From the NCBI GenBank assembly GCA_016933515.1, contig JAFGAV010000063.1, positions 3,629-67,628 of the forward strand: 64,000 nt of DNA. The letters run 5' to 3'. The notes beneath the pieces are model-generated. The model had not been told where the DNA came from, did not search any database, and worked only from the letters and a program-made list of their open reading frames with translations. How positions within the stretch are numbered: position 1 is the first letter of the stretch; each line of letters starts with the position of its first letter. This DNA is from Candidatus Aminicenantes bacterium (GTDB lineage Bacteria > Acidobacteriota > Aminicenantia > Aminicenantales > JAFGAV01). Of the stretch, positions 313-14,294 are shown piece by piece. The translations under genes and the position numbers were made by a program.

Positions 313-546
313 TTGTTTTCATTATGTGAGATTCCTTACGTCTCCCATAATGCCTCCGCCTTGGGCGCAGAAACTTCAAAACGGCGCGGGCCGGCGGCGC
401 GGGGCGGGGATTTTTTTAGATGCCGCCCATGAGATCATGGCCATATATGGGCCTCTCTGCGGTCCTCTCCGCGGGGTCGTCCCTCGCGCCGTCCGCAACG
501 TCAACCGGTTGTCGTCCGAAACCCATTCCGCTGGAAAGGAGGCTTC

Positions 547-1128
547 ATGGACATCCAGCGTAAAGTCAAATACGAACATGAGCTGGACCCCGGGTTCTTG
601 GCCAAGATCAAGCGCCTCTCTCACTGCGAAGAAATCGACCGCTGCATCCAGTGCGGGACCTGCAGCAGCTCCTGCCCCATGTCCGTTTACATGGACCACC
701 CTCCCCGCCAGATCATCGGCTTCATCAAGAACGGGTATCGGGAGGAGGCCCTGAGCAGCTTCACCGTTTGGCTCTGTTCCTCCTGTTACACCTGCCAGGT
801 CCGCTGCCCGGCCAAAATCAAGATCACCGACGTCATGTACGCCCTCAAGCGCGAGGCCATCGAGAACAAAATCTATCCCCACCGCTTCTCCATCCCCCTG
901 CTGGATAAAGAAATGACCAAGCTCATCGCCCGCGACGGCCGCAATTCCGAGATGCGGCTGATCCTCAGGCTTTATCTCAAGTCTTTCAAGCCGTTCAATC
1001 TTCTCAAGATGACGCCCCTCGGTTTGAAGCTCATGAAAACGGGCCGCATGAGCCTGAAGAGAAACCGCATCAAGGGACGCAAACAGCTTCGGGCGCTCGT
1101 CAAGGCCATCAAGGAGAACGGCAAATGA
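547..1128 (+). CDS. hdrC: heterodisulfide reductase subunit C-like (2x[4Fe-4S])
   Basis: ATG 547 follows AAGGAGG (536-542). Two CxxCxxCxxxCP motifs (CIQCGTCSSSCP, CSSCYTCQVRCP). ATGA overlap with the next gene. Confidence 0.85.
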   Translation: MDIQRKVKYEHELDPGFLAKIKRLSHCEEIDRCIQCGTCSSSCPMSVYMDHPPRQIIGFIKNGYREEALSSFTVWLCSSCYTCQVRCPAKIKITDVMYALKREAIENKIYPHRFSIPLLDKEMTKLIARDGRNSEMRLILRLYLKSFKPFNLLKMTPLGLKLMKTGRMSLKRNRIKGRKQLRALVKAIKENGK

Positions 1129-2012
1129 AAGATTATGCCTATTTCCCCGGCTGCTCCCTGAAGGAAAATTCCAAGCATTACGAGGAATCCATCCTGCCGG
1201 TGTTCAAGGCGATCGGCCATCCCTTGGAGGAGCTCGAAGACTGGAACTGCTGCGGCGCGACGGCCTATTTTTCGGTCGACAACGACATGGCCGCGGCCGT
1301 CTGCGGACGCAACCTTTCCCTGGCTGAGAAACAGGGCAAGGACATCCTGGCCCCCTGCGCCGGATGCTACCTGACCCTGAAAAAATCCAACCTCTTTCTC
1401 CAGAGCGGGGCGCCGGAAGCCAAAAAAATCCTGGGCGACCTCAAGCGTTCCGGATGCGAATACCAGGGCCGGTCCGTGGTCAAGCACCCGCTCGAGGTCC
1501 TGGTCAGGGAGATCGGACTCGACGTCATCCGGAAAAAAGTCGTCCGGAAACTCACCGGCCTCAAGGTCGCCTGTTACTACGGCTGCCAGGTCGTCCGGCC
1601 TTACACCGATTTCGACGACCCCGACCACCCGACGTCCCTCGACGCCCTGATGGAAGCCCTGGGCGCCGAGCCCGTGGATTATTCGGCCAAGACCCGATGT
1701 TGCGGGGGGCTTTTGACCGGAACGATCGAGAACGTCGGCCTCAGGCTGAACCATCTTCTTCTCAAGGAGGCCAAACGCAAGGGAGCGGATGTCATCGTGA
1801 CCGTCTGTCCCTTGTGTCTCTTCAACCTGGAGCTTTTCCAGGACAAAATCATCAAGACTTATAAAGAGGACGTCCGCATCCCCATCTTGTTTTTCAGCCA
1901 GCTCATGGGGTTGGCCTTGGGATTGTCCCGGGACGACCTCGGATTTTCCCGCTCCACAATCCCTCTGGATGCCTTCTGGGCCAAGATTCGGAACGGAGGA
2001 CAAAATGTCTGA
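1125..2012 (+). CDS. hdrB: heterodisulfide reductase subunit B-like (two CCG domains)
   Basis: 295 aa with two CCG-type cysteine motifs (DWNCCGATAYF and KTRCCGGLLTG). Translationally coupled to hdrC and to the following hdrA fragment. Confidence 0.85.
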   Translation: MKDYAYFPGCSLKENSKHYEESILPVFKAIGHPLEELEDWNCCGATAYFSVDNDMAAAVCGRNLSLAEKQGKDILAPCAGCYLTLKKSNLFLQSGAPEAKKILGDLKRSGCEYQGRSVVKHPLEVLVREIGLDVIRKKVVRKLTGLKVACYYGCQVVRPYTDFDDPDHPTSLDALMEALGAEPVDYSAKTRCCGGLLTGTIENVGLRLNHLLLKEAKRKGADVIVTVCPLCLFNLELFQDKIIKTYKEDVRIPILFFSQLMGLALGLSRDDLGFSRSTIPLDAFWAKIRNGGQNV

Positions 2013-2862
2013 GAACGGCAATCCGAGAATCGGAGTCTTTGTCTGTCATTGCGGCACCAACATCGCCGGGAAGGTCAACGTCCCCGAGGTCGTGGAGTTC
2101 GCCTCCCACTTGGACTCCGTGGTCGTGGCCAAGGAATACAAATTCATGTGCTCCGATCCCGGGCAGGAACTGATCAAACAGAGCATCAAGGATCACGGCC
2201 TGAACAGGGTGGTGGTGGCCTCCTGCTCCCCGCTGATGCATGAGCCCACGTTCCGCGGAGTGACCGCCTCCGGAGGCCTCAATCCCTTCTTTTTCCAAAT
2301 GTCCAACATCCGGGAACACGTCTCCTGGGTCACGGAAGACCCCGAGCAGGCCACCAAGAAAGCCAAAGCCCTGATTTCCGCCGCCGTCCGCCGCGTGGCT
2401 CTCCACGAGCCGCTGCTGAAAAAGGAGGTCCCCGTCCGCCCCGAGGTGCTGATCATCGGCGGAGGCATCGCCGGCATCCATGCCGCTCTGACTTATGCCA
2501 ACTCGGGCAAGAAGGTTTATCTCGTGGAGAAGGAGCCCTCGATCGGCGGACACATGGCCCAATTGGACAAGACCTTCCCCACCCTGGACTGCTCGGCCTG
2601 CATCTTGACCCCCAAGATGAGTGAAGTGGGCAAGCACCCGAACATCACGCTTCTGACCATGAGCCGGGTCGAGGAGATCTCGGGCTTCGTGGGAAATTTC
2701 AAGATCAAAATGCGCAAAAAGGCCCGCTTCGTGGACACGGCCAAATGCAACGGCTGCGGCGCCTGCTGGGAAAACTGCCCGACGACCGTGACTCCGGCGG
2801 AAAGAATCATCCGCAAAGGCAAGATGATCATCAAAACGGTGGAAAAACCCCGCCCCAATTGA
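2005..2862 (+). CDS. hdrA: HdrA-like flavoprotein, N-terminal half only
   Basis: ATG 2005 follows GGAGGA (1995-2000). Motifs: IGVFVCHCGTNIAG, VVVASCSP, FAD fold VLIIGGGIAGIHAAL, FPTLDCSACILTPKM, and a single ferredoxin motif CNGCGACWENCP. Stop at 2860-2862. Confidence 0.8.
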   Translation: MSENGNPRIGVFVCHCGTNIAGKVNVPEVVEFASHLDSVVVAKEYKFMCSDPGQELIKQSIKDHGLNRVVVASCSPLMHEPTFRGVTASGGLNPFFFQMSNIREHVSWVTEDPEQATKKAKALISAAVRRVALHEPLLKKEVPVRPEVLIIGGGIAGIHAALTYANSGKKVYLVEKEPSIGGHMAQLDKTFPTLDCSACILTPKMSEVGKHPNITLLTMSRVEEISGFVGNFKIKMRKKARFVDTAKCNGCGACWENCPTTVTPAERIIRKGKMIIKTVEKPRPN

Positions 2863-2863
2863 C

Positions 2864-3682
2864 ATGACCTTGAGAGACGCGTGCGACATCCTTCAGGCCG
2901 ACATCCTCACCGGAGAGGAGCATCTTGACCGGGAAGTGAAAATCGTGGGCGCTTCGGACCTGATGAGCGACGTTTTGGCCTTCGGCCAGCCCGGTCTGCT
3001 CCTGCTGACCGGACTGGCCAACGTCCAGGCCGTCCGCACGGCGGACATCATCGAAGCGGGCGGTGTGATCTTCGTCCGGGGGAAACGTCCCGACCAGGAC
3101 AGCGTGGACCTGGCGCGCCGGAACGGGCTGCCCCTCATGGCCACGAGCCTGATGATGTTTCCCGCCTGCGGCCGCCTCTACGAAAAAGGGCTTCACGGCG
3201 TGACGAAAACCGTCTCCTCCGCCCGGACGTCTTCCGTTTCGGAAGAACTCCTGACCCGGACCTTCGAGATCGCGGGCGGAGACTTCAGCAAAGCCGGGCA
3301 CGTCTCCATGGAAATCAAGGACATTCTCCAGGAACTGGGCATCTCTTCCGATCTCATCCGCCGCACGGCCATCGCCGCCTATGAGGCGGAGATGAACATC
3401 GTCATGTACGCCGCCCGGGGAACGCTGCGCCTTGATCTTTCCCCCCAGGCCCTCGTGATCGAGGTTGCCGACGAGGGGCCCGGAATCCCCGACATCGATA
3501 AGGCCATGACCGAGGGCTTCTCCACGGCCACACCCGAGATGCGTGAAATGGGCTTCGGCGCCGGGATGGGCCTGCCGAACATCAAGAGGAATTCCGACGA
3601 TTTCTCGATCCGATCGACGGTCGGCCGGGGAACGGATCTGCGTCTGAGCTTCCGCTTGAACAAAGGAACGGCCGAGGAATGA
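2864..3682 (+). CDS. DRTGG domain fused to an anti-sigma-factor-type Ser kinase / HATPase domain
   Basis: N-terminal part: VGASDLMSDVLAFGQPGLLLLTGLANVQAVRTA (DRTGG-like). C-terminal part: EVADEGPGIPDIDKAM...GFGAGMGLPNIKRNSD (GHKL ATPase N/G boxes). This protein type accompanies HydABC-type operons. Confidence 0.75.
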   Translation: MTLRDACDILQADILTGEEHLDREVKIVGASDLMSDVLAFGQPGLLLLTGLANVQAVRTADIIEAGGVIFVRGKRPDQDSVDLARRNGLPLMATSLMMFPACGRLYEKGLHGVTKTVSSARTSSVSEELLTRTFEIAGGDFSKAGHVSMEIKDILQELGISSDLIRRTAIAAYEAEMNIVMYAARGTLRLDLSPQALVIEVADEGPGIPDIDKAMTEGFSTATPEMREMGFGAGMGLPNIKRNSDDFSIRSTVGRGTDLRLSFRLNKGTAEE

Positions 3683-5031
3683 ACCAGTATCTGCATTCCA
3701 TCCGCGTCGATCCCGATCGCTGCAAGGGTCTGATGAAGTGCATGCATCGCTGCCCCACCCAGGCCATCCGCGTCCGGAACCGAAAGGCCGTTATCCTCGA
3801 CGAGAAATGCGTCGACTGCGGCGAATGCATCAACGCCTGCCCCAACGGGGCCATCGTGCCCTTGACGAATCCCATCGGCGATCTTTCGAAGTTCCGGCGC
3901 ACGGTCGCCATCCCTTCGCCGGCCCTCTACGCCCAATTCGGGCGGGACATCTTTCCCGACCGGATCCTGAGCGGTCTGAAAAAGCTCGGTTTCGACGACG
4001 TCCACGACCTGGCTCAGACCTGCGGGGAGGTCAGCTTCGCCATCCAGGAGTTTCTCAAGGACTACCACGGGCCGAAACCCCTCATTTCCAACACCTGTCC
4101 GGTCATCATCCGTCTTCTTCAAGTCCGTTATCCCAACCTCATCGATCAGATCCTGCCCATTGAAGCCCCGCGGGAGCTGGCCGCCCGGGAGATCAAGCGA
4201 AGCCTCGCGGAACGGTACGGCCTTCCGGAACGGGACATCGGCGCCTTTTATCTGACGCCCTGCCCGGTCAAGATGGTATCCATCATGCAGCCCGCCGAAA
4301 AGGGACGGTCCTTCCTGGACGGCGCGATCTCCATCACGGACATTTACCGGCCTCTTTTGACCTCCATGGATCCTTCGCCCCGGGAAAGCGGCCATCGGAG
4401 CCTGGAGAACCTCTGCATTCTGGGCCTCGGCTGGGCGATCGTGGGCGGGATCAGCCGCACTCTCAGACTCAGAAACTCCCTCTCCGTTTCCAGCCTGAGC
4501 GAAGTCGTGAGGGTGTTCGACGACATCGAACGGGGCAAACTGACCGACATCGATTTCATCGAAGCCTATTCCTGCCCCCAGGGCTGCGTCGGAGGCTCAT
4601 TGAACGTGGAGAACATCTATTCCTCTTACAACAAGATCCTCAAGATCATCGAAACGCTGGAGTTCGAAAAAATCCGGGCCTGTCCCGACATTCGCAAGGT
4701 CCGCCGAAAATACTCCGAGAACTTCTTCTCGCTCGAAGGCACCGTCGAGCCCCGGCCGCCCAAGCCGCTTCATCCCGATCTGTCGGAAGCCATCAGAAAA
4801 TTGAAGGAAAGGGACGAAATCCATCGTCGGCTGCCGAAAATCGACTGCGGCGCCTGCGGCGCGCCGACCTGTCTCGCTTTCGCCGAGGACGTCGTCCGCG
4901 GCGAAGCGAAGCTCGAGGACTGCCCCGTCCGGGAGGCGGAGCGTCTCCGTGCCGGCGGTCCGAAAAAAGACGAGCCCGAGGGGCCCGGCCTCAACAGCCG
5001 GACCGAGAACACCACGCGAGGATCATCATGA
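3679..5031 (+). CDS. [FeFe]-hydrogenase-like H-cluster-domain protein with N-terminal 2x[4Fe-4S] and C-terminal FeS (CX2CX4C...C) domain; putative sensor, not a catalytic HydA
   Basis: CVDCGECINACP ferredoxin motif. Degenerate H-cluster motifs SNTC140P, TPC195PVK198, SC299PQGC303VGG. C-terminal CGACGAPTC...DCP. ATGA overlaps at both ends. Confidence 0.75.
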   Translation: MNQYLHSIRVDPDRCKGLMKCMHRCPTQAIRVRNRKAVILDEKCVDCGECINACPNGAIVPLTNPIGDLSKFRRTVAIPSPALYAQFGRDIFPDRILSGLKKLGFDDVHDLAQTCGEVSFAIQEFLKDYHGPKPLISNTCPVIIRLLQVRYPNLIDQILPIEAPRELAAREIKRSLAERYGLPERDIGAFYLTPCPVKMVSIMQPAEKGRSFLDGAISITDIYRPLLTSMDPSPRESGHRSLENLCILGLGWAIVGGISRTLRLRNSLSVSSLSEVVRVFDDIERGKLTDIDFIEAYSCPQGCVGGSLNVENIYSSYNKILKIIETLEFEKIRACPDIRKVRRKYSENFFSLEGTVEPRPPKPLHPDLSEAIRKLKERDEIHRRLPKIDCGACGAPTCLAFAEDVVRGEAKLEDCPVREAERLRAGGPKKDEPEGPGLNSRTENTTRGSS

Positions 5032-5372
5032 CCGTTGAAGAAATCGCCCGTTCCCTCGACTTGACCGTTCTCAGCGGCGGGCCGAGGCTGTCCCAACCGG
5101 TCGCCGGAGGCTACGCCAGCGACCTGCTGAGCGACGTCATGGCCAACAGCCGGGAGGGGGATATCTGGATCACGCTTCAGACCCACCAGAACATCATCGC
5201 CGTGGCCAAACTCAAGAACCTGTCGGCCGTCGTTCTGGTCAATTCCCGGACGCCCGATCCCGAGACGCTTCAGAAGGCCGAGCAGGAAGGCATCGTTCTG
5301 TGCCGGACGGCCGATCCGGCTTTTGTCTTCTCGGGCAGGCTCTACGAGCTGCTCGGGAGGGGCAAAGGATAA
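5028..5372 (+). CDS. DRTGG domain protein
   Basis: 114 aa: GGYASDLLSDVMANSREGDIWITLQTHQNIIAVA..., paralogous to the N-terminal half of 2864-3682. Confidence 0.65.
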   Translation: MTVEEIARSLDLTVLSGGPRLSQPVAGGYASDLLSDVMANSREGDIWITLQTHQNIIAVAKLKNLSAVVLVNSRTPDPETLQKAEQEGIVLCRTADPAFVFSGRLYELLGRGKG

Positions 5373-5374
5373 GG

Positions 5375-6106
5375 ATGCTCAGAGTGTTCAAAGCCGACCT
5401 TCACGTTCACACCTGCCTTTCGCCCTGCGGCGATTTGGAGATGGCGCCGGAGAGGATCGCTCTCGAGGCGCGGCGCCGGGACATCTCGATCCTCGGCATC
5501 TGCGACCATAACACCGCCGAAAACACTCCGGCTCTTCTCCGCGCCGGAGAGCGGAACGGGGTTTCCGTCCTGCCCGGGCTGGAAGTGACTTCCCAAGAAG
5601 AAGTTCACATCCTGGCGCTGTTCGACCGCGTGGAGTCGGCTCTGGAGATGCAAAAAACCGTCTACGACCACCTGCCCGGAGAAAACGACGAGGATGCCTT
5701 CGGTCCTCAGGTCGTCGTCAACGACCGGGGCGAAGTCCTGGGGTTCAACCCCCGCCTTCTCATCGGCGCCACCACCCTGCCCCTGGGGGATGTCGTGCGC
5801 CGGATCCACGAGCTCGACGGGCTGGCCATCGCCGCTCACGTCGACCGTGAGAGCTACAGTCTGATCGGCCAGCTGGGGCTCATTCCGGACGACCTGGACC
5901 TGGACGCCCTGGAGGTCTCGCCCCGAACGACCTTGGCCGAAGCCCGTTCCCGTTATGGAAATCGATTTCCCCTGACAACCGCCTCGGACGCCCATTTCCT
6001 CAGGGACATCGGAGCGGCCGTCACGGAATTCGTGCTCGAGGACGGCACGGTGCCGGAAATCCGTCTGGCGCTCGAAGGACGCGACGGACGGCGCCTCGGA
6101 CATTGA
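5375..6106 (+). CDS. PHP-domain metal-dependent phosphoesterase
   Basis: Internal ATG 5375 lies 2 nt after the upstream stop. MLRVFKADLHVHTCLSPCGD...ILGICDHNT is the PHP His motif pattern. The upstream part of the track ORF (from 5300, GTG) overlaps the previous gene and is rejected. Confidence 0.75.
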   Translation: MLRVFKADLHVHTCLSPCGDLEMAPERIALEARRRDISILGICDHNTAENTPALLRAGERNGVSVLPGLEVTSQEEVHILALFDRVESALEMQKTVYDHLPGENDEDAFGPQVVVNDRGEVLGFNPRLLIGATTLPLGDVVRRIHELDGLAIAAHVDRESYSLIGQLGLIPDDLDLDALEVSPRTTLAEARSRYGNRFPLTTASDAHFLRDIGAAVTEFVLEDGTVPEIRLALEGRDGRRLGH

Positions 6107-6663
6107 AAGGACGCATGGAAGACTTGTCGCTGCACATTCTCGACGTCGCGGAGAACTCGGTGCGGGCCGGGGCCGGCACGGTTGCCATCCGCGTCGAGGA
6201 AGACAGCCGCGGCGATGTCCTTTCTCTCGAAATCGAGGACGACGGCGAGGGCATGGATGAAACGACGAAGAAAAAGATCCTGGATCCTTTCTTCACCACC
6301 CGGACGACGCGGCGGATCGGCCTGGGCCTGCCGCTCCTGGCCGAGGCGGCCCGGGCGGCCGAAGGGCGCCTGTCCGTCGATTCCGCCCCGGGAAAAGGAA
6401 CGCGCGTCACGGCCGTCTTCCGCCGCAGCCATATCGACCGCAAGCCGCTGGGCGACATCGTCCAAACCCTGGTGGCTCTTATCCTGGGCCATCCCGGAAC
6501 GCATTTCGTCTACCGGCAGGCCGTCGACGGGCGGACCTTCCTTTTCGACACACGGACGCTGCGTGTCGAGTTGGAAGACGCGCCGCTCGACTCTCCGTCA
6601 GCCATCTCCCTCATCCGAAAAAGACTGCAGGAAGGCCTGGCTTCCCTAAGGAGGACAACATGA
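6103..6663 (+). CDS. GHKL/HATPase-domain protein (histidine-kinase-like ATPase, no HisKA)
   Basis: LHILDVAENSVRAGA...LEIEDDGEGMD...DPFFTTR...IGLGLPLL...GKGTRV (N, G1, G2 boxes). ATGA overlaps on both sides. Confidence 0.7.
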   Translation: MKGRMEDLSLHILDVAENSVRAGAGTVAIRVEEDSRGDVLSLEIEDDGEGMDETTKKKILDPFFTTRTTRRIGLGLPLLAEAARAAEGRLSVDSAPGKGTRVTAVFRRSHIDRKPLGDIVQTLVALILGHPGTHFVYRQAVDGRTFLFDTRTLRVELEDAPLDSPSAISLIRKRLQEGLASLRRTT

Positions 6664-7115
6664 GCAACAGCAAGGTCATGGAAATTCTCGGCCGGTACGA
6701 GTCCGACCCGGGCGCCATCATCTCCATTCTCCAGGATGTTCAGGAAGCCTATCGCTACCTCCCCCGCGACGTCCTGGCCGACGTCTCCCGGGAGATCAAT
6801 ATCCCCCTGAGCCGCATTCTCAGCCTGGCCACCTTTTACAAGGCCTTCAGCCTGAAACCCAAGGGCAGGCACGCCTTTCATGTCTGTCTGGGCACCGCCT
6901 GCCACGTCCGCGGCGCTCAGCTCGTTCTGGAGAAGCTCGAGCGGGAATTGGGCATCTCCGCCGGCGAGACGTCCGAGGACCTGGCGTACAGTCTGGACGC
7001 CGTCCGCTGCGTGGGATGCTGCGGACTGGCGCCGGTCGTCATGGTCGGGGAGGAAGTCCACGGCAAAATCACCCAGACCAAAGTCTCCGGCCTCGTGAAA
7101 AAATATTCTAGATAG
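6660..7115 (+). CDS. NuoE/HydC-type [2Fe-2S] subunit of NADH-linked flavoprotein module
   Basis: AIISILQDVQEAYRYLP...HVCLGTACHVRG...VRCVGCCGLAPV is the classic NuoE thioredoxin-like 2Fe-2S pattern. Confidence 0.9.
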   Translation: MSNSKVMEILGRYESDPGAIISILQDVQEAYRYLPRDVLADVSREINIPLSRILSLATFYKAFSLKPKGRHAFHVCLGTACHVRGAQLVLEKLERELGISAGETSEDLAYSLDAVRCVGCCGLAPVVMVGEEVHGKITQTKVSGLVKKYSR

Positions 7116-7126
7116 GGGAAGACCTC

Positions 7127-7525
7127 ATGCCGAAACTCACCCTGGAAGAACTGGCGAAAGTGCGGGAGCAGGCGCGAAAGAAAACCCATCTCCGCGAGGG
7201 CGGAGAGGTCCGGGCCAAGGTGACGGTCCATATGGGAACGTGCGGCATCGCGGCCGGCGCGCGGACCATCATGAGCACTCTGCTGTCCGAGATCGAGAGC
7301 CGGGACGTCCGCGACGTCCAGGTGACGAACTCGGGATGCGCGGGGCTGTGCAGCCGGGAGCCGATGATCACCGTGGAGCTGGCCGGCGAGGCGCCGGTCA
7401 AATACGTGGACCTCAATCCGGACAAGATGAAAACCATCTTCGCAGAGCATGTCCTCGGCGGGAAGATCGTCGCGAAATACGCCCTGGGCATCGGCAGCGA
7501 AAAAACGGACTTTCCCAAGGAGTGA
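7127..7525 (+). CDS. small thioredoxin-like (2Fe-2S) ferredoxin (HydD-like)
   Basis: VTVHMGTCGIAAGA...SGCAGLCSREPM; 132 aa; located between the nuoE-like and nuoF-like genes. Confidence 0.8.
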   Translation: MPKLTLEELAKVREQARKKTHLREGGEVRAKVTVHMGTCGIAAGARTIMSTLLSEIESRDVRDVQVTNSGCAGLCSREPMITVELAGEAPVKYVDLNPDKMKTIFAEHVLGGKIVAKYALGIGSEKTDFPKE

Positions 7526-7528
7526 GCC

Positions 7529-9361
7529 ATGCCCGAAAAACACGCGGAGACGGCCCATCGTCTCCATCTCATGGTCTGCGCCGGGACGGCCTGCGTCTCC
7601 AATCATTCCTTCGCCATCAAGGACGCCCTGGAGAAAGAGATCCGGAAACACGGCCTGGAGAACGAAGTCCTGGTCGTCACCACGGGCTGCAACGGGTTCT
7701 GTGAGCGCGGCCCCCTTCTCGTCGTCCAGCCGGGGAACATCTTTTACCAGCAGCTCACCGTCAAGGACATCCCGCATCTCGTGGAAGAGCACTTTCTCAA
7801 GGGACGACCGGTCAGCCGGCTGATGTACACGCCGCCCAAGGAGAAAAAACCCGTTCCGGTCCTGAGCGACATCGATTTTTTCAAGAAACAGGTGCTCATC
7901 GCTCTTAGAAACAGAGGCCTGATCGACCCCGAAAAAATCGAGGAGAGCATCGCCCGGGACGGCTACAAAGCCATGGCCAAAGCCCTGACGGAAATGACGC
8001 CCGCCCAGATCATTATGGAGATCAAACAGTCCGGGCTGCGGGGACGAGGCGGAGCGGGCTTTCCCACCGGCTTGAAATGGGAGATGGTCCGCAACGCCGT
8101 GAGCACGAACGGCGGGGGCAAGTACCTGATTTGCAACGGCGACGAGGGCGACCCGGGCGCGTTCATGGATCGAAGCATCCTGGAGGCCGACCCCCATTCC
8201 GTCATCGAAGGCATGGTCATCGGCGCCAAGGCCGTGGGCGCCACCGAGGGCGTGCTCTACGTCCGGAACGAATACCCGCTGGCCGTCAAAAGGCTCCAAA
8301 TCGCACTCGCCCAGGCCCGAGAGTACGGCCTGCTGGGCGAGGACATCCTGGGCACGAAGTTCAGCTTCGACATCAAGGTCCACCGGGGCGCCGGCGCTTT
8401 CGTCTGCGGCGAGGAGACCGCTCTCATCGCCTCGATCGAGGGCCGGCTGGGCGAACCCCGGCCCCGTCCCCCCTACCCGGCCCAGAGCGGCCTCTACGGC
8501 CGGCCGACGCTCATCAATAACGTCGAGACCTGGGCCAACGTGCCCGTGATCATCGACCGGGGATCTTCCTGGTTCTCCTCGATCGGCACGGAGACGAGCA
8601 AGGGCACCAAAGTCTTCTCCCTCGTGGGCAAGATCAACAACACCGGCCTGGTCGAAGTGCCCATGGGCATCACCCTGCGGGAGATCATCTACGACATCGG
8701 CGGGGGCATCCCCGGCGGGAAGGCCTTCAAAGCCGTTCAGACGGGCGGACCCTCGGGAGGCTGCATCCCCGCGGACATGATCGACTTGCCGATCGATTAC
8801 GAGAGCCTGAGCCAGGCCGGATCGATGATGGGCTCGGGCGGCATGGTCGTCATGGACGAGGACACCTGCATGGTGGACGTGGCCCGTTATTTCCTGTCCT
8901 TCACCAAGGACGAGTCCTGCGGCAAATGCACGCCCTGTCGCGAAGGCACAAAGATCATGTTCGACATCCTGACGCGGATCTGCGAAGGCCGGGGAACGGA
9001 AGCGGACCTGGAGCTCCTGGAAAGCCTGGCCCCTTCGATCAAAGACTCGGCGCTCTGCGGCCTGGGCAAAACCGCGCCCAATCCCGTCCTCACCACGCTG
9101 CGCTATTTCCGCTCCGAGTATGAGGCCCACATCCGGGACAAGAAATGTCCGGCTCACGTGTGCCGGCAGCTCAACACCTACACCATCGACGAAAAGATCT
9201 GCCTCGAAGCCGGACATGGATGCGATGTCTGCCGCCGCAATTGCGCTTCCGACGCCATCCGGGGCGAGAAAAACACGGCTCACTCCATCAACCAGGACAA
9301 GTGCATCAAATGCGGCGTATGTCTCGACGTCTGCAAATTCCACGCCGTCAAGGTCGAATAG
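7529..9361 (+). CDS. NuoF/HydB-type FMN/NAD(H)-binding subunit with extra N-terminal 2Fe-2S and C-terminal 2x[4Fe-4S] domains
   Basis: LRGRGGAGFPTGLKW and NGDEGDPGAF (NADH/FMN motifs); ESCGKCTPCREG (N3 cluster). N-terminal MVCAGTACVS...GCNGFCERGP. C-terminal CDVCRRNCASDAI and CIKCGVCLDVC. Confidence 0.9.
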   Translation: MPEKHAETAHRLHLMVCAGTACVSNHSFAIKDALEKEIRKHGLENEVLVVTTGCNGFCERGPLLVVQPGNIFYQQLTVKDIPHLVEEHFLKGRPVSRLMYTPPKEKKPVPVLSDIDFFKKQVLIALRNRGLIDPEKIEESIARDGYKAMAKALTEMTPAQIIMEIKQSGLRGRGGAGFPTGLKWEMVRNAVSTNGGGKYLICNGDEGDPGAFMDRSILEADPHSVIEGMVIGAKAVGATEGVLYVRNEYPLAVKRLQIALAQAREYGLLGEDILGTKFSFDIKVHRGAGAFVCGEETALIASIEGRLGEPRPRPPYPAQSGLYGRPTLINNVETWANVPVIIDRGSSWFSSIGTETSKGTKVFSLVGKINNTGLVEVPMGITLREIIYDIGGGIPGGKAFKAVQTGGPSGGCIPADMIDLPIDYESLSQAGSMMGSGGMVVMDEDTCMVDVARYFLSFTKDESCGKCTPCREGTKIMFDILTRICEGRGTEADLELLESLAPSIKDSALCGLGKTAPNPVLTTLRYFRSEYEAHIRDKKCPAHVCRQLNTYTIDEKICLEAGHGCDVCRRNCASDAIRGEKNTAHSINQDKCIKCGVCLDVCKFHAVKVE

Positions 9362-9373
9362 GAGGTCCCCCTC

Positions 9374-11131
9374 ATGATCACCCTGAGCATAGACGGAAAA
9401 CCGATCCAGGTCGAGGAAGGCACGACCCTCCTCGAAGCCGCCCGCAAGCTGGACATTCCCATTCCGACGCTCTGCCATCATCGGGTCATCGAACCCTACG
9501 CCGCGTGCCGGGTGTGCCTGGTCGAGGTCTCGCTCAAAGGGAGGACGGATCTTGTCCCCTCCTGCAACACCAAGGCCGTCGAGGGCATGGAGGTCCGGAC
9601 CCAGTCGCCCCGCGCCCTCAACGCCAGAAAAATGAACGTCGAGATGCTCCTGGCTAGGGCGCCGGCCGCCGAGCCGGTGCGGGAGATCGCCCGCTCGCTG
9701 GGCATCACCGAAACGCGCTTCGAGGTCAAAGAGCCGACAAGGAAGTGCATCCTGTGCGGCCTGTGCGTCCGGGCCTGCGAGGACATCGTCGGCGCCAACG
9801 CCATCAGCTTTCTCGAGCGCGGTGCGGAACGGAGGGTGTCCACTCCTTTCGACGAACCGTCCGAGGCTTGCATCGGCTGCGCGGCCTGCGCCTTTTTCTG
9901 TCCCACGGGAGCCATCACCGTCGAGGATCTGCGGGGCCGCAAAGTCCTCCACGACGAGTTCACCCTCGGACCCTCGACAGCCATCCGCATCCCCACCCGG
10001 CAGGCCGTCCCCATGGTGCCCTTCATCGACGAGGACGCCTGCATTCACTTCAAAACGGGGAAATGCGGCGTCTGCGCCAAGGTGTGCGACCGGGAAGCGG
10101 TCAATCACGAGATGCAGGACGAGATCATCGAGTTCGAGGTGGGCTCGATCATCGTCGCCTCGGGCTTCAAATCCTTCGACGCCCGGAGGATCCCGGCCTA
10201 CGGCTACGGACGCTATCCCAACGTCCTCACCGCCGAAGAGTTCGAGCGGATGGTCAACGCCTCGGGCCCCACGGGCGGGAAGATCAAGCTGACCGACGGC
10301 CGCGAGCCGCAGGCCGTGGGCATCGTCCACTGCGTCGGCTCGCGCGACGTCAACTTCAACGAGTACTGCTCCCGAGTGTGCTGCATGTATTCCCTGAAAT
10401 TTGCGCATCTCATCAAGGAAAAAACGAACGCGGCGATCTACGACTTCTACATCGACATGCGCACCTACGGCAAAGGCTACGAGGAATTCTACCACCGGCT
10501 CCTCGAGGAGGGGACTCACTTCATCCGCGGCCGCGTGTCGGAGATCACGGACATGGCGACGACGGACGCCGAAGAAGGAAAACTCATCATCCGGGTCGAG
10601 GACACGCTTCTCGGGTCGGTGCGGCGCATCCCCGTGGACATGGTCGTCTTGGCCACGGGGCTCGAGCCGAGCCTGGACCACAACCTCCTGGCGAAGACGC
10701 TCGGCATCTCCTGCAGCCAGGACGCGTTTTTCCTTGAGCGCCATCCCAAGCTCGCCCCCTTGGCCACCTATTCCGACGGGATTTTCCTGGCCGGCACCTG
10801 CCAGGCGCCCCGCGACATTCCCGATACGGTCGCCCAGGCCGGGGGCGCGGCGGCCGAGGCCCTGGCCCTGGCCGACAAGGGAACGTTCGCCCTGGAGCCC
10901 ATCACCGCCGTGATCGACAAGGACATCTGCGCCGGCTGCCAGATCTGCGTCGGCCTGTGCCCGTTTACGGCCATCACCTTCGACAAGGAGCAGGGCGTTT
11001 CCGTCATCAACGACGCGCTGTGCAAGGGTTGCGGAACCTGCGTGGCGGCCTGCCCGAGCGGCGCGGCCCAACAGAAGCATTTTCGCGACACGCAGATTTT
11101 CGCCGAGATCGAGGGGATTTTCCTGGCATGA
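9374..11131 (+). CDS. hdrA: fusion protein: NuoG/HydA-like N-terminal [2Fe-2S]+2x[4Fe-4S] module joined to the C-terminal two-thirds of HdrA
   Basis: C34/C45xxC48/C64 2Fe-2S pattern; CILCGLCVRAC; CIGCAACAFFCP. HdrA-collinear sequence follows: CIHFKTGKCGVCAKVC, IIVASGF, VHCVGSRD, YCSRVCCMYSLK, FLAGTCQAPRDIP, CAGCQICVGLCP, CKGCGTCVAACP. Confidence 0.8.
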   Translation: MITLSIDGKPIQVEEGTTLLEAARKLDIPIPTLCHHRVIEPYAACRVCLVEVSLKGRTDLVPSCNTKAVEGMEVRTQSPRALNARKMNVEMLLARAPAAEPVREIARSLGITETRFEVKEPTRKCILCGLCVRACEDIVGANAISFLERGAERRVSTPFDEPSEACIGCAACAFFCPTGAITVEDLRGRKVLHDEFTLGPSTAIRIPTRQAVPMVPFIDEDACIHFKTGKCGVCAKVCDREAVNHEMQDEIIEFEVGSIIVASGFKSFDARRIPAYGYGRYPNVLTAEEFERMVNASGPTGGKIKLTDGREPQAVGIVHCVGSRDVNFNEYCSRVCCMYSLKFAHLIKEKTNAAIYDFYIDMRTYGKGYEEFYHRLLEEGTHFIRGRVSEITDMATTDAEEGKLIIRVEDTLLGSVRRIPVDMVVLATGLEPSLDHNLLAKTLGISCSQDAFFLERHPKLAPLATYSDGIFLAGTCQAPRDIPDTVAQAGGAAAEALALADKGTFALEPITAVIDKDICAGCQICVGLCPFTAITFDKEQGVSVINDALCKGCGTCVAACPSGAAQQKHFRDTQIFAEIEGIFLA

Positions 11132-11177
11132 ACCCCTCGGATTTCCGCTCGTTTTCCCGGAACGGCAATCCGGGGAT

Positions 11178-11199
11178 GACCGGGAGAGAATTCCCGGTC
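11178..11199 (+). other. intercistronic stem-loop (8-bp stem GACCGGGA/TCCCGGTC, 6-nt loop)
   Basis: Read directly from the sequence in the 107-nt gap between the HdrA-fusion gene and mvhD. No T-run follows, so it is not a classical terminator. Confidence 0.3.
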
Positions 11200-11238
11200 T
11201 CCCCGCTCAAAAGGTCTTCTCAACGAGGAGAACACAAA

Positions 11239-11679
11239 ATGCAGGAAGAACCGTTTGAGCCCAATCTGGTCGGGTTTTTGTGCACCTGGTGCTCCTACAC
11301 CGGGGCCGATTTTGCGGGGACGGCCCGCATGACCTATGCGCCCAACGTGAAGATCATCCGCGTGATGTGCAGCGGCCGTGTGGATCCCCAATTCGTGCTC
11401 AAGGCGTTCCGGGAGGGCGCCGACGGAGTTCTCATCTCGGGCTGCCACCCGGGCGACTGCCATTATAAAGAAGGGAACTATCGGACCCTGCGCCGATACC
11501 GGCTCCTGATCCGAGTGCTGGAACAGATGGGGATCGAGCCCGCAAGGCTCCGGCTGGAATGGGTCTCGGCCGCCGAAGGCGCTAGGTTTCAACGGGTCTG
11601 CAACGAATTCACGGAACAGATCCGGGCCCTGGGACCTCTCAGCCTGAATGGAGGAAAACATGAGCAACACCAAGCCTAA
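11239..11679 (+). CDS. mvhD: MvhD-like (methyl-viologen-reducing hydrogenase delta subunit) [2Fe-2S] protein
   Basis: ATG 11239 follows GAGGAG (11225-11230). FLCTWCSYTGADFAG...IRVMCSGRVDP...ADGVLISGCHPGDCHY is the MvhD/FlpD signature. Confidence 0.85.
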   Translation: MQEEPFEPNLVGFLCTWCSYTGADFAGTARMTYAPNVKIIRVMCSGRVDPQFVLKAFREGADGVLISGCHPGDCHYKEGNYRTLRRYRLLIRVLEQMGIEPARLRLEWVSAAEGARFQRVCNEFTEQIRALGPLSLNGGKHEQHQA

Positions 11680-12640
11680 GGTCGCCTTTTACTGGTGCGC
11701 CTCCTGCGGGGGGTGCGAGGAGTCGATCATCGACCTGGCCGAGGACATCCTCAAGGTCGCGGCGGCGGTGGACATCGTGTTCTGGCCCGTGGCCCTGGAT
11801 TTCAAGAGGAAAGACGTCGAGGCCATGGAAGACGGTTCGATCGCCGCGAGTTTCATCAACGGCGCCGTCCGCAACAGCGAACAGGAGGACATGGTCAAGC
11901 TCCTCCGCCGCAAGTCCCGGATCGTCGTGGCCCACGGCTCGTGCTCCCACTTGGGCGGCATCCCCGGCCTGGCCAACTTCTGGGACAAGGAGACGATCTT
12001 CAGGCGGGCCTACCTGACCACGCCTTCGACCGACAATCCCCAGGGAGTCGTGCCCCTGGAAAAAAGCGCGGTCGACGGCTGCGAGCTCGAGCTGCCCCGT
12101 TTCTACGACACCGTTTTCTCACTGGACCAGGTGATCGACGTGGATTATTACCTTCCCGGCTGCGCCCCCCCGCGGGATCTCATCCTGAGCGCCTTTCAGG
12201 CCCTCCTGGAGGGCACTCTCCCGCCCAAGGGCTCGGTCCTATCGCCCAACAAGTCCGAGTGCGACGAGTGCGACCGCAACGACACGAAGCCGGAGAAGCT
12301 CGAGATCAAGGAGGTCAAGCGCCCCTGGGAGGTTCACCTCGACCCTGAAGTCTGCTTCCTCGCCCAGGGCGTGATCTGCATGGGCCCGGCCACCCGGGCG
12401 GGGTGCGGACAGCGCTGCATTTCGGCCAACATGCCCTGCCGCGGCTGTTTCGGTCCCACGGACCAGGTCTACGACCAGGGAGCCAAGTTCCTCTCGGCCT
12501 TCGCTTCGATCCTGGCCACCGACGACGAAAAGGAAATCGAGAACATCGTCCAGACCATCGTCGACCCGGCGGGCACGTTCTACCGGTTCAGCCTGCCGAG
12601 CAGCATCCTCAGGCGAAAGAGATTGGAGGCGGTCAAATGA
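11660..12640 (+). CDS. mvhG: [NiFe] hydrogenase small subunit, cytoplasmic group-3c (MvhG)-like
   Basis: KVAFYWCASCGGCEESIID is the proximal-cluster motif, and there is no Tat signal. The start is either ATG 11660 (GGAGGA at 11650-11655) or ATG 11648. ATGA overlap with the large subunit. Confidence 0.85.
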   Translation: MSNTKPKVAFYWCASCGGCEESIIDLAEDILKVAAAVDIVFWPVALDFKRKDVEAMEDGSIAASFINGAVRNSEQEDMVKLLRRKSRIVVAHGSCSHLGGIPGLANFWDKETIFRRAYLTTPSTDNPQGVVPLEKSAVDGCELELPRFYDTVFSLDQVIDVDYYLPGCAPPRDLILSAFQALLEGTLPPKGSVLSPNKSECDECDRNDTKPEKLEIKEVKRPWEVHLDPEVCFLAQGVICMGPATRAGCGQRCISANMPCRGCFGPTDQVYDQGAKFLSAFASILATDDEKEIENIVQTIVDPAGTFYRFSLPSSILRRKRLEAVK

Positions 12641-14106
12641 CGACCCGCGGCAAGAAAATCACCATCGACCCCATCACCCGGCTGGAGGGGCACGGCAAGA
12701 TCGAAATCTTTCTCGACGACAAGGGGGACGTCCACCGGGCCATCCTCCAGATTCCGGAGCTCCGGGGCTTCGAGCAGTTCGCCGTCGGCCGGCCCGTTGA
12801 AGAAATGCCCCGCATCACCCCCCGCATCTGCGGCGTCTGTCCCACGGCCCACCATATGGCCGCCACCAAGACCGTGGACGCCGTCTTCCATGTCGAGCCC
12901 ACGCCCGCCGGCCGCATGATCCGGGAACTCATCTACAACACCTTCATGTTCGAGGACCACACGCTCCACTTTTTCTTCCTCGGCGGTCCGGACTTCGTCG
13001 TCGGCCCCACCGCGCCGAAAGGCGAGCGGAACATCCTGGGCGTCATCGGCAAGGTCGGGTTGGAAATCGGCGGCCGGGTCATCAAGGCCCGCCGCGAAAC
13101 CCGGGACATCATCAATCACCTGGGCGGCAAAATCATCCATCCCGTGTGCGGCCTGCCGGGCGGCGTTTCCAAGGGGCTGGACGAGGAGCACCGGCTGAAG
13201 TTCCTCGAGGTGGCCAAAAACACCGTGGAGTTCGCCCAATTCGCCCTCACCATCTTCGACGACGTCGTCTTAAAGAACAAGCAGTACGTCGACCTTGTTC
13301 TGAGCGACGCCTTCACCATCAAGACGCATTACATGGGGCTCGTGGACGAAAAGAACAGGGTCAATTTCTACGACGGCGATCTCCGCGTCGTCACTCCCGA
13401 GGGCAAGGAATTCGTCAAATTCAAGCCCGACCGGTATCTGGACGTCATCGCCGAGCACGTCGAGCCGTGGACGTACATCAAATTTCCGTTCCTGAAAAAG
13501 ATCGGCTGGAAGGGGTTTCAGGACGGTCCGGACAGCGGGGTTTTCCGCGTGGCTCCCCTGGCTCGGCTCAACGCCTCGGACGGCATGGCCACCCCGAGAG
13601 CTCAGGCCGAATACGAGAAGATGTACTCCGTCCTGGGCGGAAAGCCCGTCCACAACACGCTCGCCTTCCACTGGGCCCGCCTGATCGAGGCGCTCCAGGC
13701 GGCCGAGGCCATGGTCGGCCTGCTCGAGGACAAGGCCATCACCGACCCCAACATCCGCAACATCCCCACCGCCGTTCCGGACGAGGGCGTGGGCATCGTC
13801 GAGGCTCCCCGCGGCGTCCTCATCCACCACTACAAGACCGATCCGCGGGGAATCGTCACCGAGGCCAACCTCATCGTGGCCACGGTGAACAACGCCGCGG
13901 CCATCAACATGTCCATCGAAAAGGCGGCTAGAGCGTTCATCAAGGGAGGAAAAATCGACGACGGCCTGCTCAACATGGCCGAGATGGGATTCCGCCCTTA
14001 CGACCCCTGCCACGCCTGCGGCACACACGCCCTGGGCGGGGAGGCCCCTCTGGTCGTCGACGTGTTCGACAAGGACGGCAACCTCGTCCGCCGACTGACG
14101 CGCTGA
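12637..14106 (+). CDS. mvhA: [NiFe] hydrogenase large subunit, group-3c (MvhA)-like
   Basis: Internal ATG 12637 overlaps the small-subunit stop. ITRLEGHG; N-terminal RICGVCPTAHH; C-terminal DPCHACGTH followed by a 25-aa cleavable extension. The upstream 78 codons of the track ORF are rejected. Confidence 0.9.
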   Translation: MTTRGKKITIDPITRLEGHGKIEIFLDDKGDVHRAILQIPELRGFEQFAVGRPVEEMPRITPRICGVCPTAHHMAATKTVDAVFHVEPTPAGRMIRELIYNTFMFEDHTLHFFFLGGPDFVVGPTAPKGERNILGVIGKVGLEIGGRVIKARRETRDIINHLGGKIIHPVCGLPGGVSKGLDEEHRLKFLEVAKNTVEFAQFALTIFDDVVLKNKQYVDLVLSDAFTIKTHYMGLVDEKNRVNFYDGDLRVVTPEGKEFVKFKPDRYLDVIAEHVEPWTYIKFPFLKKIGWKGFQDGPDSGVFRVAPLARLNASDGMATPRAQAEYEKMYSVLGGKPVHNTLAFHWARLIEALQAAEAMVGLLEDKAITDPNIRNIPTAVPDEGVGIVEAPRGVLIHHYKTDPRGIVTEANLIVATVNNAAAINMSIEKAARAFIKGGKIDDGLLNMAEMGFRPYDPCHACGTHALGGEAPLVVDVFDKDGNLVRRLTR

Positions 14107-14114
14107 GCTTCCCG

Positions 14115-14146
14115 GGGGGACAGGCGCTGACGTGCGGCCGTCCCCC
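14115..14146 (+). terminator. weak stem-loop after mvhA (GGGGGAC ... GTCCCCC)
   Basis: 7-bp GC stem with an 18-nt loop, 9 nt after the mvhA stop. There is no clear T-run. Confidence 0.25.
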
Positions 14147-14261
14147 TGTTCTCCTCGGCCTTCCGGCGCCGGAGCGCTTTCCCCGGCCTCCGGGTTGTTC
14201 CGAAACGTTCGGTAACCGTCCGGATCTCCCGCCGCGGACGGGCGCACGGGACGCGGCGGTG

Positions 14262-14270: not shown

Positions 14271-14294
14271 CGGGAGAAGATTCCCGAGGCGGCC

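Follow-up and report, generated by a model that had tools for sequence, protein, structure and literature searches.

A Bfu module nested in a split hdrA gene beside a group 3c-like [NiFe] hydrogenase: a conserved, apparently undescribed arrangement of known bifurcating modules

Do the heterodisulfide reductase (Hdr), Bfu and Mvh-type [NiFe]-hydrogenase genes that share one cluster in a 64,000-nucleotide (nt) stretch of DNA from an uncultured sediment bacterium, Candidatus Aminicenantes (contig JAFGAV010000063.1, positions 3,629 to 67,628 of the forward strand; hereafter the window) encode a single enzyme and, if so, how would electrons pass through it? An earlier note on this DNA had described a run of sixteen genes extending from hdrC to mvhA. 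Open reading frame (ORF) listing, together with searches of Pfam, NCBIfam and PDB sequences, confirmed the cluster at positions 547–14106 and the claimed gene order; the count, however, is 15 intact ORFs on the + strand, as it also is in the note's own gene list. We propose that these 15 genes encode one soluble multi-subunit redox complex (Mvh–Hdr–Bfu) and an H2-sensing regulatory cassette, which we hold to be probable as a full explanation of the locus. The narrower proposal, that the Hdr, Bfu and Mvh parts form one complex, appears very likely from the sequences. The note had suggested such a super-complex, linking H2, nicotinamide adenine dinucleotide (NAD(H)), ferredoxin and an HdrBC acceptor, and the splitting of hdrA, the gene fusions and the conservation in 32 of 80 related loci lend that suggestion support.

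No one-chain HdrA is encoded in the cluster. The N-terminal half (positions 1969–2862, + strand; the true start is probably at 2005, where an ATG is preceded by GGAGGA) carries the N-terminal cluster domain, the beginning of the flavin adenine dinucleotide (FAD)/TrxR domain and the first Cys motif of the inserted ferredoxin domain, CNGCGACWENCP, which is followed by a tail of ~20 residues and the stop codon. This half matches 5odc_A (residues 3–263, E = 1.5e-102). The remainder of HdrA is found at positions 9374–11131 (+ strand), in a protein that matches both HdrA (8rvu_a, E = 3e-119) and the BfuA-like chain 9mqx_A (E = 1.5e-36). Residues 1 to ~194 of this fusion constitute a short BfuA, with ligands for one 2Fe-2S cluster (C34/45/48/64) and 4Fe-4S motifs at C125–135 and C166–176. 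Residues 195–585 supply the second Cys motif of the inserted ferredoxin domain (C223/C231/C234/C238), the TrxR/FAD domain and the C-terminal ferredoxin domain, the HdrA part starting at "EFTLGPSTAIRIPTRQAVP...". The NuoG-like/HdrA-C fusion that the earlier note had recognized is thus present, with the correction that its NuoG-like part is short, at ~190 residues, and has no His-ligated cluster.

The position of the break was located in two ways. In the HdrA2 model of NCBIfam (777 positions), residues 20–275 of HdrA-N cover positions 1–258, residues 195–581 of the fusion cover 262–639 and MvhD covers 644–774; the tiling leaves no gap or overlap, and no segment is lost or duplicated. In a MAFFT alignment, HdrA-N and the fusion from residue 195 onwards are colinear across the junction with three full-length HdrAs. 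Both place the break within the inserted ferredoxin domain, in the loop that joins its two Cys motifs. A phmmer match had HdrA homology beginning at fusion residue 164, so that the first Cys motif would be present twice; the hidden Markov model tiling and the MAFFT alignment decided for residue 195 instead. Even in homologues with as little as 38% identity, the fusion's cysteines do not vary. K342 in the CCMYxxK region is invariant as well and might correspond to the conserved Lys at N5 of bifurcating FADs. The fusion protein is identical to one in GenBank that comes from a Candidatus Aminicenantes metagenome; its homologues number in the hundreds at 74–88% identity, and all of those named by organism are from Aminicenantes.

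The HdrA domain set (N-terminal cluster, TrxR-like FAD domain with a 4Fe-4S cluster, inserted and C-terminal ferredoxin domains) is therefore complete, spread over two polypeptides between whose genes lie five regulator genes, bfuC, a small 2Fe-2S gene and bfuB. Neither half contains a complete FAD domain, and the two must associate if the flavoprotein is to form. Because each half lacks a full FAD domain, and because one of them is covalently Bfu, a single Mvh–Hdr–Bfu complex is strongly implied. The covalent link between BfuA and the half that completes HdrA supports this far more than the operon structure does.

The nested Bfu genes were next to be assigned. The product of bfuC (positions 6660–7115, + strand), a NuoE/HydC-like protein, has a Trx-like [2Fe-2S] domain with cysteines 76, 81, 117 and 121 (PF01257, E = 2.4e-47; HoxE/NuoE models). 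It is followed by a gene for a small Trx-like 2Fe-2S ferredoxin (7127–7525, + strand; PF01257, E = 4e-4, below cutoff), which we take to be HydD-like, as in tetrameric HydABCD. The bfuB gene (7529–9361, + strand) encodes a NuoF/HydB-like flavoprotein of the bifurcating type that is colinear with HydB structures and comprises an N-terminal 2Fe-2S domain, a flavin mononucleotide (FMN)/NAD(H) domain, the NuoF 4Fe-4S cluster, KCPAxxC and a C-terminal 2×[4Fe-4S] domain. It matches bifurcating HydB from end to end (7t2r_B, E = 1.6e-260, residues 10–607 against 4–594; 7q4v_B, E = 8e-255), which confirms the extra N- and C-terminal cluster domains ascribed to it in the earlier note. It retains the N-terminal CxxxC...CxxxC motif, into which four residues are inserted, as well as KCPAxxC and the two Cys motifs at the C terminus.

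Members of the Bfu family couple NAD(H), ferredoxin and a third substrate in one reaction, and their BfuB subunits combine an FMN/NAD(H) site with five Fe-S clusters (N-terminal 2Fe-2S, NuoF-type 4Fe-4S, an additional 2Fe-2S and C-terminal 2×[4Fe-4S]); the N-terminal 2Fe-2S, KCPAxxC and C-terminal 4Fe-4S motifs set bifurcating members apart from non-bifurcating NuoF relatives (Schut et al. 2022, PMC9304861). The 7529–9361 protein has this site and these clusters, the 6660–7115 protein has the Trx-like [2Fe-2S] domain of BfuC, and residues 1 to ~194 of the fusion have the short form with reduced clusters of a type 2 BfuA. The best structure match of this BfuA part, 9mqx_A, is itself only 247 residues long, and its nearest database relatives are free-standing proteins of 185–265 residues. 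No His-ligated cluster motif is present in it.

Related loci were collected by scanning one genome per GTDB species; 80 loci (L001–L080) were kept, the window proteins were mapped onto them by tblastn, and counts of flanking genes were restricted to loci with enough flanking DNA. The full-length fusion, as in the window, occurs in 32 of the 80 loci (family 1). These come from Aminicenantes, other Acidobacteriota (including Bryobacterales), Ignavibacteriota, Zixibacteria/GN15, Armatimonadota, Fidelibacterota, Planctomycetota, Chloroflexota (Anaerolineae and Dehalococcoidia), Spirochaetes and Thermoplasmatota. The split-hdrA/Bfu layout recurs in more than ten phyla, and retention of the arrangement on this scale is beyond chance. 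Within family 1, HdrA-N lies upstream of the fusion in 19 of 22 loci, BfuC and BfuB do so in 26 of 29, and the fusion is followed by MvhD in 26 of 31 and by MvhG and MvhA in 16 of 23; HdrC and HdrB were detected in 15 of 22 by tblastn, which missed a fused HdrC::HdrB protein in L016. The HdrA-N orthologues all end soon after the CxxCxxCxxxCP motif, and the break point is identical in Bacteria and Archaea.

The halves of HdrA have also been joined to Bfu in a second manner. In a Planctomycetaceae metagenome-assembled genome (MAG; L017, positions 3391–4671, 426 residues) and a Spirochaetales MAG (L056, positions 6855–8126, 423 residues), HdrA-N and BfuC form a single ORF. These independent HdrA-N::BfuC fusions again tie HdrA to Bfu and so support a single complex. 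A further 34 loci, at ~40% identity, make up family 2, found in Desulfobacterales, Planctomycetota, Spirochaetes, Thermoplasmatota and Altiarchaeales. Their gene order is bfuC, bfuB, a gene for a BfuA_N::truncated-HdrA::full-HdrA protein of ~1090 residues and mvhD (L035–L066; for example, L035, positions 10001–13300), usually without an adjacent hydrogenase, and their translated HdrA-N tails suggest an HdrA-N::BfuC fusion in many of these loci too. The tandem HdrA of family 2 recalls the fused HdrA dimer BamE, in a gene order unlike that of the bam cluster. In five family-2 loci of the Desulfobacterales type (L035, L036, L041, L044 and L070), the short HdrA-N upstream of bfuC contains an in-frame TGA ('...DCAM*IISP...'), which probably encodes selenocysteine, because full-length HdrAs have Cys at this position (TNDCSICIL).

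Several loci depart from the window in what follows the split-hdrA/Bfu unit. In the Dehalococcoidia loci L008 (6997–11931) and L009 (10001–14755), a second BfuA/BfuC/BfuB set replaces mvhDGA. In the Aminicenantes locus L003 (10001–15283), the full hdr–regulator–bfu–fusion block is followed directly by sensor kinase and NtrC genes, with no mvhDGA adjacent. When the Calditrichaeota fragment L073 was used to look for a cultured host, the only matches were partial proteins and free-standing short BfuA proteins.

The remaining Hdr and Mvh subunits are of familiar types. The hdrC-like gene (positions 547–1128, + strand, 193 residues; Fer4_8, E = 2e-12) is preceded by a GGAGG ribosome-binding site and encodes two CxxCxxCxxxC motifs, at residues 33 and 77, as ligands for 2×[4Fe-4S]. 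The hdrB-like gene (1125–2012, + strand, 295 residues) contains the CCG domain twice (PF02754, E = 5e-31), and both motifs are complete (C-X31-CC-X34-CxxC at residues 10–81 and a second at 154–231), giving ligands for both non-cubane [4Fe-4S] clusters. The cofactor motifs of a heterodisulfide reductase are thus present in HdrBC. The scores against the NCBIfam models are 206 bits for HdrB (TIGR03288, cutoff 345) and 79 bits for HdrC (TIGR03290, cutoff 160), and HdrB scores nearly as well, at 195 bits, against the SdhE/MFR model. Since both score below the CoB–CoM cutoffs, the two proteins should be filed as HdrBC-like rather than as a CoM-S-S-CoB reductase.

Three genes complete the cluster: mvhD for a [2Fe-2S] adaptor (positions 11239–11679, + strand; FlpD, E = 1e-54; VhuD, E = 2e-36), mvhG for the [NiFe]-hydrogenase small subunit (11648–12640, + strand; Oxidored_q6; VhuG, E = 1e-65) and mvhA for the large subunit (12637–14106, + strand; VhuA, E = 7e-124). 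MvhA has the motifs L1 (RICGVCPTAH) and L2 (DPCHACGTH), for which PMC6085437 served as the reference, and a 25-residue C-terminal extension of the type removed by a maturation protease. Among PDB sequences it matches 9sw2_F (E = 3e-114), 5odc_F (E = 4.5e-114), 7t2r_D (E = 5e-113) and 5xf9_D (E = 1e-94), so that MvhA/VhuA structures are practically tied with the NiFe-HydABCSL enzyme (7t2r_D) and ahead of a group 3d enzyme (E = 1e-94). VhuA, VhuG and VhuD are the best NCBIfam models, with a VhuA score of 414 bits against an equivalog cutoff of 800 bits. By sequence, the large subunit falls in group 3, nearest to 3c, as had been expected of it; the L1 and L2 motifs, the similarity to MvhA/VhuA and the MvhG and MvhD partners are those of group 3c. 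When the flanking ORFs of 21 loci were clustered, a HycI-type maturation protease proved to be the only widely shared neighbour; it flanks the cluster in 9 loci (for example, L005, 14708–15223), either after mvhA or before hdrC. The window's cluster has no such gene, although its MvhA tail is of a cleavable type. No DsrC/TusA-like, lipoate-binding or thioredoxin-like gene is conserved in the flanks of these 21 loci.

How does this assembly compare with characterized enzymes? [quoted passage not shown] It differs in that HdrA is made as two polypeptides, split in the inserted ferredoxin domain, and in that a BfuABC-type module is grafted where methanogens dock polyferredoxin; the window's cluster has no MvhB/VhuB polyferredoxin gene, HdrB and HdrC lie below the CoB–CoM equivalog cutoffs, and the host is no methanogen. 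NiFe-HydABCSL ("NiFe-Bfu"; 7T2R, Acetomicrobium mobile) likewise combines a BfuBC core with a [NiFe] hydrogenase of group 3; its HydA, however, is a full-length BfuA (692 residues) linked directly to HydSL, without HdrA, HdrBC or MvhD, and it has three substrates (H2, NAD and ferredoxin (Fd)) rather than four. In group A3 HydABC/HydABCD operons, the genes for HydC, the small 2Fe-2S protein and HydB have counterparts here, whereas the window's cluster lacks a HydA with an H-cluster; what remains of BfuA is fused to HdrA, and the catalytic hydrogenase is [NiFe]. In bacteria, FlxABCD–HdrABC links the chemistry of NAD(H) to HdrBC and an HdrA flavin. Published work describes the same link for HdrABC–MvhD–MetFV; in both of these systems, the NADH modules are not of the NuoEF/Bfu type, hydrogenase is absent and HdrA is unsplit.

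The closest characterized enzyme, and the only one that joins both modules, is class II benzoyl-CoA reductase (BCRII) of Geobacter metallireducens (Bam[(BC)2DEFGHI]2, "Bam-Bfu"), which holds both HdrA and HydBC/Bfu modules (PMC9304861) as well as an MvhD-like adaptor and an HdrBC-like subunit. The earlier note's statement that each known bifurcating system uses either HdrA-FAD or a NuoF-type FMN is accordingly wrong, for BCRII (BamBCDEFGHI) has both in series. Structural work on it shows confurcation by BamGH followed by bifurcation at BamE, whose clusters E5 and E6, on the inserted ferredoxin arm, feed the tungsten enzyme BamBC (bioRxiv 10.64898/2026.04.10.717634). BamI has one 2Fe-2S and two 4Fe-4S clusters, as deduced from the BamGHI cluster totals, like the BfuA part of the fusion. 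In BCRII, Bfu is the donor: electrons from BamI cross the ferredoxin-like domain at the C terminus of BamE and then BamF (MvhD) to reach the flavin, and there is no hydrogenase. In the window, by contrast, Bfu is attached at the inserted ferredoxin domain and a [NiFe] hydrogenase stands on the donor side, together with genuine HdrBC-like subunits in the complex; BamB and BamC genes are absent, the gene order differs, and a single HdrA is split into two chains where BamE is a fused HdrA dimer.

The earlier note did not recognize the combination as characterized, and a search of full-text literature found no account of a split hdrA with bfu genes inside it; a review of HdrA (Appel et al. 2021) lay outside that coverage. 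Schut et al. left metagenomic data out of their 2022 survey, in which 18 of 57 clades were uncharacterized (PMC9304861), and the one supplementary file examined from it lists neither Hdr nor Mvh. The role of group 3c [NiFe]/Hdr systems in bacteria and non-methanogenic archaea has been called unresolved (PMC6472368; PMC5317091), and genome papers annotate such clusters as plain "MvhADG/HdrABC" (PMC7509429); in the Caldithrix abyssi genome paper, Cabys_1914–1916 have hdr genes upstream. The arrangement is thus conserved and apparently undescribed, although its modules are known.

Between hdrA-N and bfuC lie the five regulatory-type genes noticed earlier, one of which proved to be an overlooked [FeFe]-hydrogenase homologue. 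Regulator 1 (positions 2864–3682, + strand; Pfam) combines a weak PucR/DRTGG-like N terminus with HATPase_c_2, a domain like that of anti-sigma/RsbW-type Ser kinases, and its gene adjoins the HydS-like gene in related loci too. Regulator 2 (3679–5031, + strand, 450 residues; Fe_hyd_lg_C, E = 3.5e-22; PF04060, E = 2.5e-16) is the HydS-like protein, a homologue of sensory-type [FeFe] hydrogenases. It has 2×[4Fe-4S], an H-domain and a C-terminal PF04060 four-Cys cluster, and scores 117 bits against FeFe_hydrog_B1, below cutoff. Aligned to 7qv7_D and 8rxj_A, its H-domain keeps all four Cys ligands of the H-cluster (NTCP, TPCPVK and SCPQGC), while the proton-relay Cys is replaced by Thr. This replacement, with HATPase and PHP genes as neighbours, is what characterizes sensory, group C-like [FeFe] hydrogenases, and by sequence the protein carries the signature of a sensory hydrogenase; a domain search detected no PAS domain in it. 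The statement that the cluster has no catalytic [FeFe] subunit therefore holds for a HydA-type subunit, although an [FeFe] homologue is present. Regulator 3 (5028–5372, + strand) is a small DRTGG-like protein (PF07085, E = 0.0019, below cutoff) whose position is kept in related loci, regulator 4 (5375–6106, + strand) is a PHP-domain phosphoesterase (PHP, E = 2.8e-6; PHP_C, E = 3.1e-6), and regulator 5 (6103–6663, + strand) is a stand-alone HATPase_c protein, or histidine-kinase-like ATPase (E = 1.3e-17).

We take the kinase, DRTGG, PHP and HATPase genes to be the type of cassette that accompanies group A3 bifurcating [FeFe]-hydrogenase operons. Group A3 bifurcating [FeFe] hydrogenases often run towards H2 production. 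A sensory-type [FeFe] homologue beside Bfu genes has a parallel in Hydrogenedentota, for which co-located group C3 and A3 [FeFe]-hydrogenase genes have been reported. In family 1, tblastn detected the HydS-like regulator in 10 of 29 loci and the PHP gene in 14 of 29, and in the Planctomycetaceae locus L017 the regulator block sits at another position in the cluster; because of this patchy presence and shifted position, the regulators are an accessory module. The small 2Fe-2S gene is present wherever the regulator genes are and, in addition, in Chloroflexota loci. BfuB is 59–84% identical to that of the window where the small 2Fe-2S and regulator genes are present and 50–59% identical where they are absent. 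This identity does not track the type of HdrA fusion, and its tracking of the small 2Fe-2S and regulator genes is a hint that the block of Bfu and regulator genes has passed between the two architectures.

The spacing of the genes bears out the ATGA-type overlaps and gaps of about 110 nt or less described before. Seven junctions are 4-nt overlaps, two nominal overlaps of 32–44 nt depend in size on the choice of start codon, and the remaining gaps are 1–12 nt, except for 107 nt before mvhD. A sigma-70-type promoter-like site (TTGACA-18 nt-TAAAAT, positions 283–312, + strand), recognized by consensus match, lies upstream of hdrC; it agrees with the consensus at 11 of 12 positions and is the only strong + strand site in 1–18000. 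No consensus + strand terminator stands at any gene boundary inside the cluster. From this layout, we infer a single transcription unit for the 15 genes. The 107-nt spacer between the fusion gene and mvhD (11132–11238, + strand), the only long one in the operon, is structured (minimum free energy (MFE) −44.4 kcal/mol, z = −2.36), with hairpins lacking a U-tract, and matches neither the promoter nor the terminator consensus. This spacer may act in processing or stabilizing the mRNA and thereby set how much Hdr/Bfu is made relative to Mvh. Right after the mvhA stop codon, a G+C-rich hairpin (14113–14148, + strand; MFE −53.7 kcal/mol, z = −2.0) with a weak U-tract may serve as a terminator. The 64-kb window gave no matches when scanned for Rfam families and tRNAs.

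The attachment point of BfuA suggests how electrons would move through the proposed complex. In methanogen Hdr, low-potential electrons leave the HdrA flavin through the inserted ferredoxin domain, which touches polyferredoxin (PMC13518236); because this domain is the low-potential arm in methanogens and BfuA is fused at it here, low-potential electrons would pass into Bfu. The donor side (MvhD, MvhG and MvhA) and the high-potential side (HdrC and HdrB) are conventional. In the wiring that we propose, and that we favour slightly, HdrA would be assembled from two chains, with the two [4Fe-4S] clusters of the inserted ferredoxin domain ligated across both, and the short BfuA domain, fused just before the second Cys motif, would recruit BfuB (FMN, NAD(H) and ferredoxin-binding C-terminal clusters) and BfuC. 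H2 would be oxidized at MvhA, and electrons would flow through MvhG and MvhD to the bifurcating FAD of HdrA. From there, the high-potential electron would travel by way of HdrC and the non-cubane clusters of HdrB to a disulfide-type acceptor, whereas the low-potential electron would leave through the inserted ferredoxin domain directly into BfuA, and the BfuBC core would perform a second bifurcation, to NAD+ and ferredoxin.

The net reaction, which we offer tentatively and with less assurance than the wiring itself, would be reversible: 4 H2 + 2 RSSR' + NAD+ + 2 Fd(ox) <-> 4 RSH + NADH + 2 Fd(red). At the low H2 pressures of sediments (~1–10 Pa), the H+/H2 couple would stand at about −270 to −300 mV, too weak to drive a reaction like that of HydABC. 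Disulfide reduction would pay for the Hdr stage, which would raise electrons to a Bfu input of roughly −400 mV. The HydS-like sensor and its kinase, phosphoesterase and DRTGG partners probably tune expression or activity to H2.

Several observations weigh against the proposed complex, wiring or direction. Adjacency in sequence is no proof of proximity between clusters; HdrA is a dimer with large domain movements, and BfuA could touch it elsewhere. An AlphaFold2 model of the fusion alone (43-row alignment; mean predicted local distance difference test score 62, predicted template modelling score 0.38) is confident only in the BfuA part, and its geometry is unreadable. HdrB and HdrC fall short, by the NCBIfam cutoffs, of equivalence to the methanogen CoM-S-S-CoB reductase, and no disulfide substrate or regenerating pathway is evident in the window or in the conserved flanks. 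H2 uptake with a second bifurcation of the low-potential electrons looks wasteful under standard conditions, and the resemblance of the regulatory cassette to those of group A3 operons may mean that the physiological direction is H2 production; together with the fermentative lifestyle ascribed to these phyla, the cassette keeps H2 evolution possible. Four loci (L003, L008, L009 and L022, in the last of which the core was only partly detected) have the split-hdrA/Bfu core without adjacent mvhGA. For this reason, Hdr–Bfu–MvhD is regarded as the conserved core, and the hydrogenase looks like an exchangeable input module. Finally, BamD of BCRII, which is HdrBC-like, passes electrons to ETF and no disulfide is reduced (bioRxiv 10.64898/2026.04.10.717634).

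One alternative is that the wiring is BCRII-like, with Bfu as the input, NADH and reduced ferredoxin confurcating to the HdrA flavin, and with H2, through MvhDGA, and the HdrBC acceptor as outputs of a fermentative H2 evolution. It is the mode of the only characterized enzyme with both Bfu and HdrA, and a sensory [FeFe] hydrogenase sits beside the Bfu genes as with group A3 clusters, whose enzymes often run towards H2 production; moreover, published work describes Aminicenantes and Ignavibacteria as fermenters with NADH and reduced ferredoxin to dispose of. BamI, however, feeds the C-terminal ferredoxin-like domain and BamF, whereas BfuA sits here in the inserted-ferredoxin loop, on the low-potential arm, and the MvhD/donor place is already occupied by a complete, methanogen-like Mvh hydrogenase. 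The characterized group 3c enzymes, too, oxidize H2 in cells (PMC11216029). We therefore judge this wiring unlikely, although it is the alternative that we take most seriously.

A less probable alternative still, with perhaps an outside chance, is that HdrA acts as a wire or scaffold in an analogue of NiFe-HydABCSL, in which HdrA and MvhD would replace the C-terminal part of BfuA as the link to the hydrogenase, and HdrBC would be a side outlet or a redox (thiol) switch. In sequence, BfuB and the large subunit come roughly as near to NiFe-HydABCSL (7t2r_B and 7t2r_D) as to anything, and BamE contains a second, non-bifurcating FAD, which shows that HdrA-like units can be structural. The HdrA halves are nevertheless highly similar to bifurcating HdrAs over their full length and keep both the inserted and the C-terminal ferredoxin domains, both HdrB CCG motifs are intact, and HdrC and HdrB accompany the fusion in most family-1 loci, in fused form in L016. 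Independent enzymes (Mvh–Hdr, a BfuABC-type enzyme and regulators) that are merely co-transcribed, or an hdrA decaying after insertion of a hyd-type cassette, might be suspected from the likeness of the regulator–bfuC–fdx–bfuB block to the cassette of group A3 [FeFe]-hydrogenase operons and from the different place of the regulators in L017. However, no HdrA half is viable by itself, the reading frames are intact with Cys ligands invariant across phyla at 38–88% identity, the break point is the same in Bacteria and Archaea, and mere co-transcription cannot explain the HdrA-N::BfuC fusions; we regard this explanation as very improbable.

If the Mvh–Hdr–Bfu parts do form a single complex, it would be the second natural coupling of HdrA-type and HydBC-type modules and the first with a hydrogenase, at an attachment point unlike that of BCRII. 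The Bfu module would then be able to plug into the low-potential arm of HdrA, with a polarity opposite to that in BCRII. Trace H2 could drive the reduction of NAD+ and ferredoxin at the expense of a disulfide, or, in reverse, thiol-level electrons could be vented as H2, which would explain the role of group 3c/Hdr clusters in many non-methanogenic phyla. That the window's system exemplifies a widespread, so far unrecognized class of two-stage cascade bifurcating hydrogenase, with the HdrA flavin and the Bfu site in series through a cross-chain ferredoxin domain, is more doubtful than the net reaction given above, and we raise it as a conjecture. Many lineages from sediments and the subsurface have Hdr/Mvh genes interleaved with Bfu, which alters both the reaction to be predicted and the redox bookkeeping when abundant uncultured anaerobes are modelled metabolically, and the arrangement offers a direct test of module interchangeability in bifurcating enzymes.

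Directly downstream of the cluster lie genes for a Cache-HAMP-HisKA sensor kinase (14295–16277) and a sigma-54 NtrC-type response regulator (~16280–17653). The same kinase and regulator also follow the cluster in the Aminicenantes loci L001, L002, L003, L004 and L024, in four of which a distant hydrogenase small-subunit match comes after them. In the window, the NtrC-type gene is followed, up to position 22283, by a second [NiFe] hydrogenase of four genes that resembles group 3b (sulfhydrogenase type): a Fer4_22 subunit (17731–18903), an Fe-S subunit with NAD_binding_1 and DHODB domains (18723–19760), the small subunit (19771–20553) and the large subunit (ORF 20079–22283, with a true start that is probably later). 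Beyond these are two further response-regulator and hybrid kinase genes (22580–23404 and 23532–24647) and a CobW/HypB-family GTPase (24780–25850), possibly a nickel-insertion factor for both hydrogenases. A paralogous Cache-HAMP-HisKA kinase (30888–32912) lies beside genes for an ABC transporter with a PBP_like_2 binding protein (− strand, 27124–30254).

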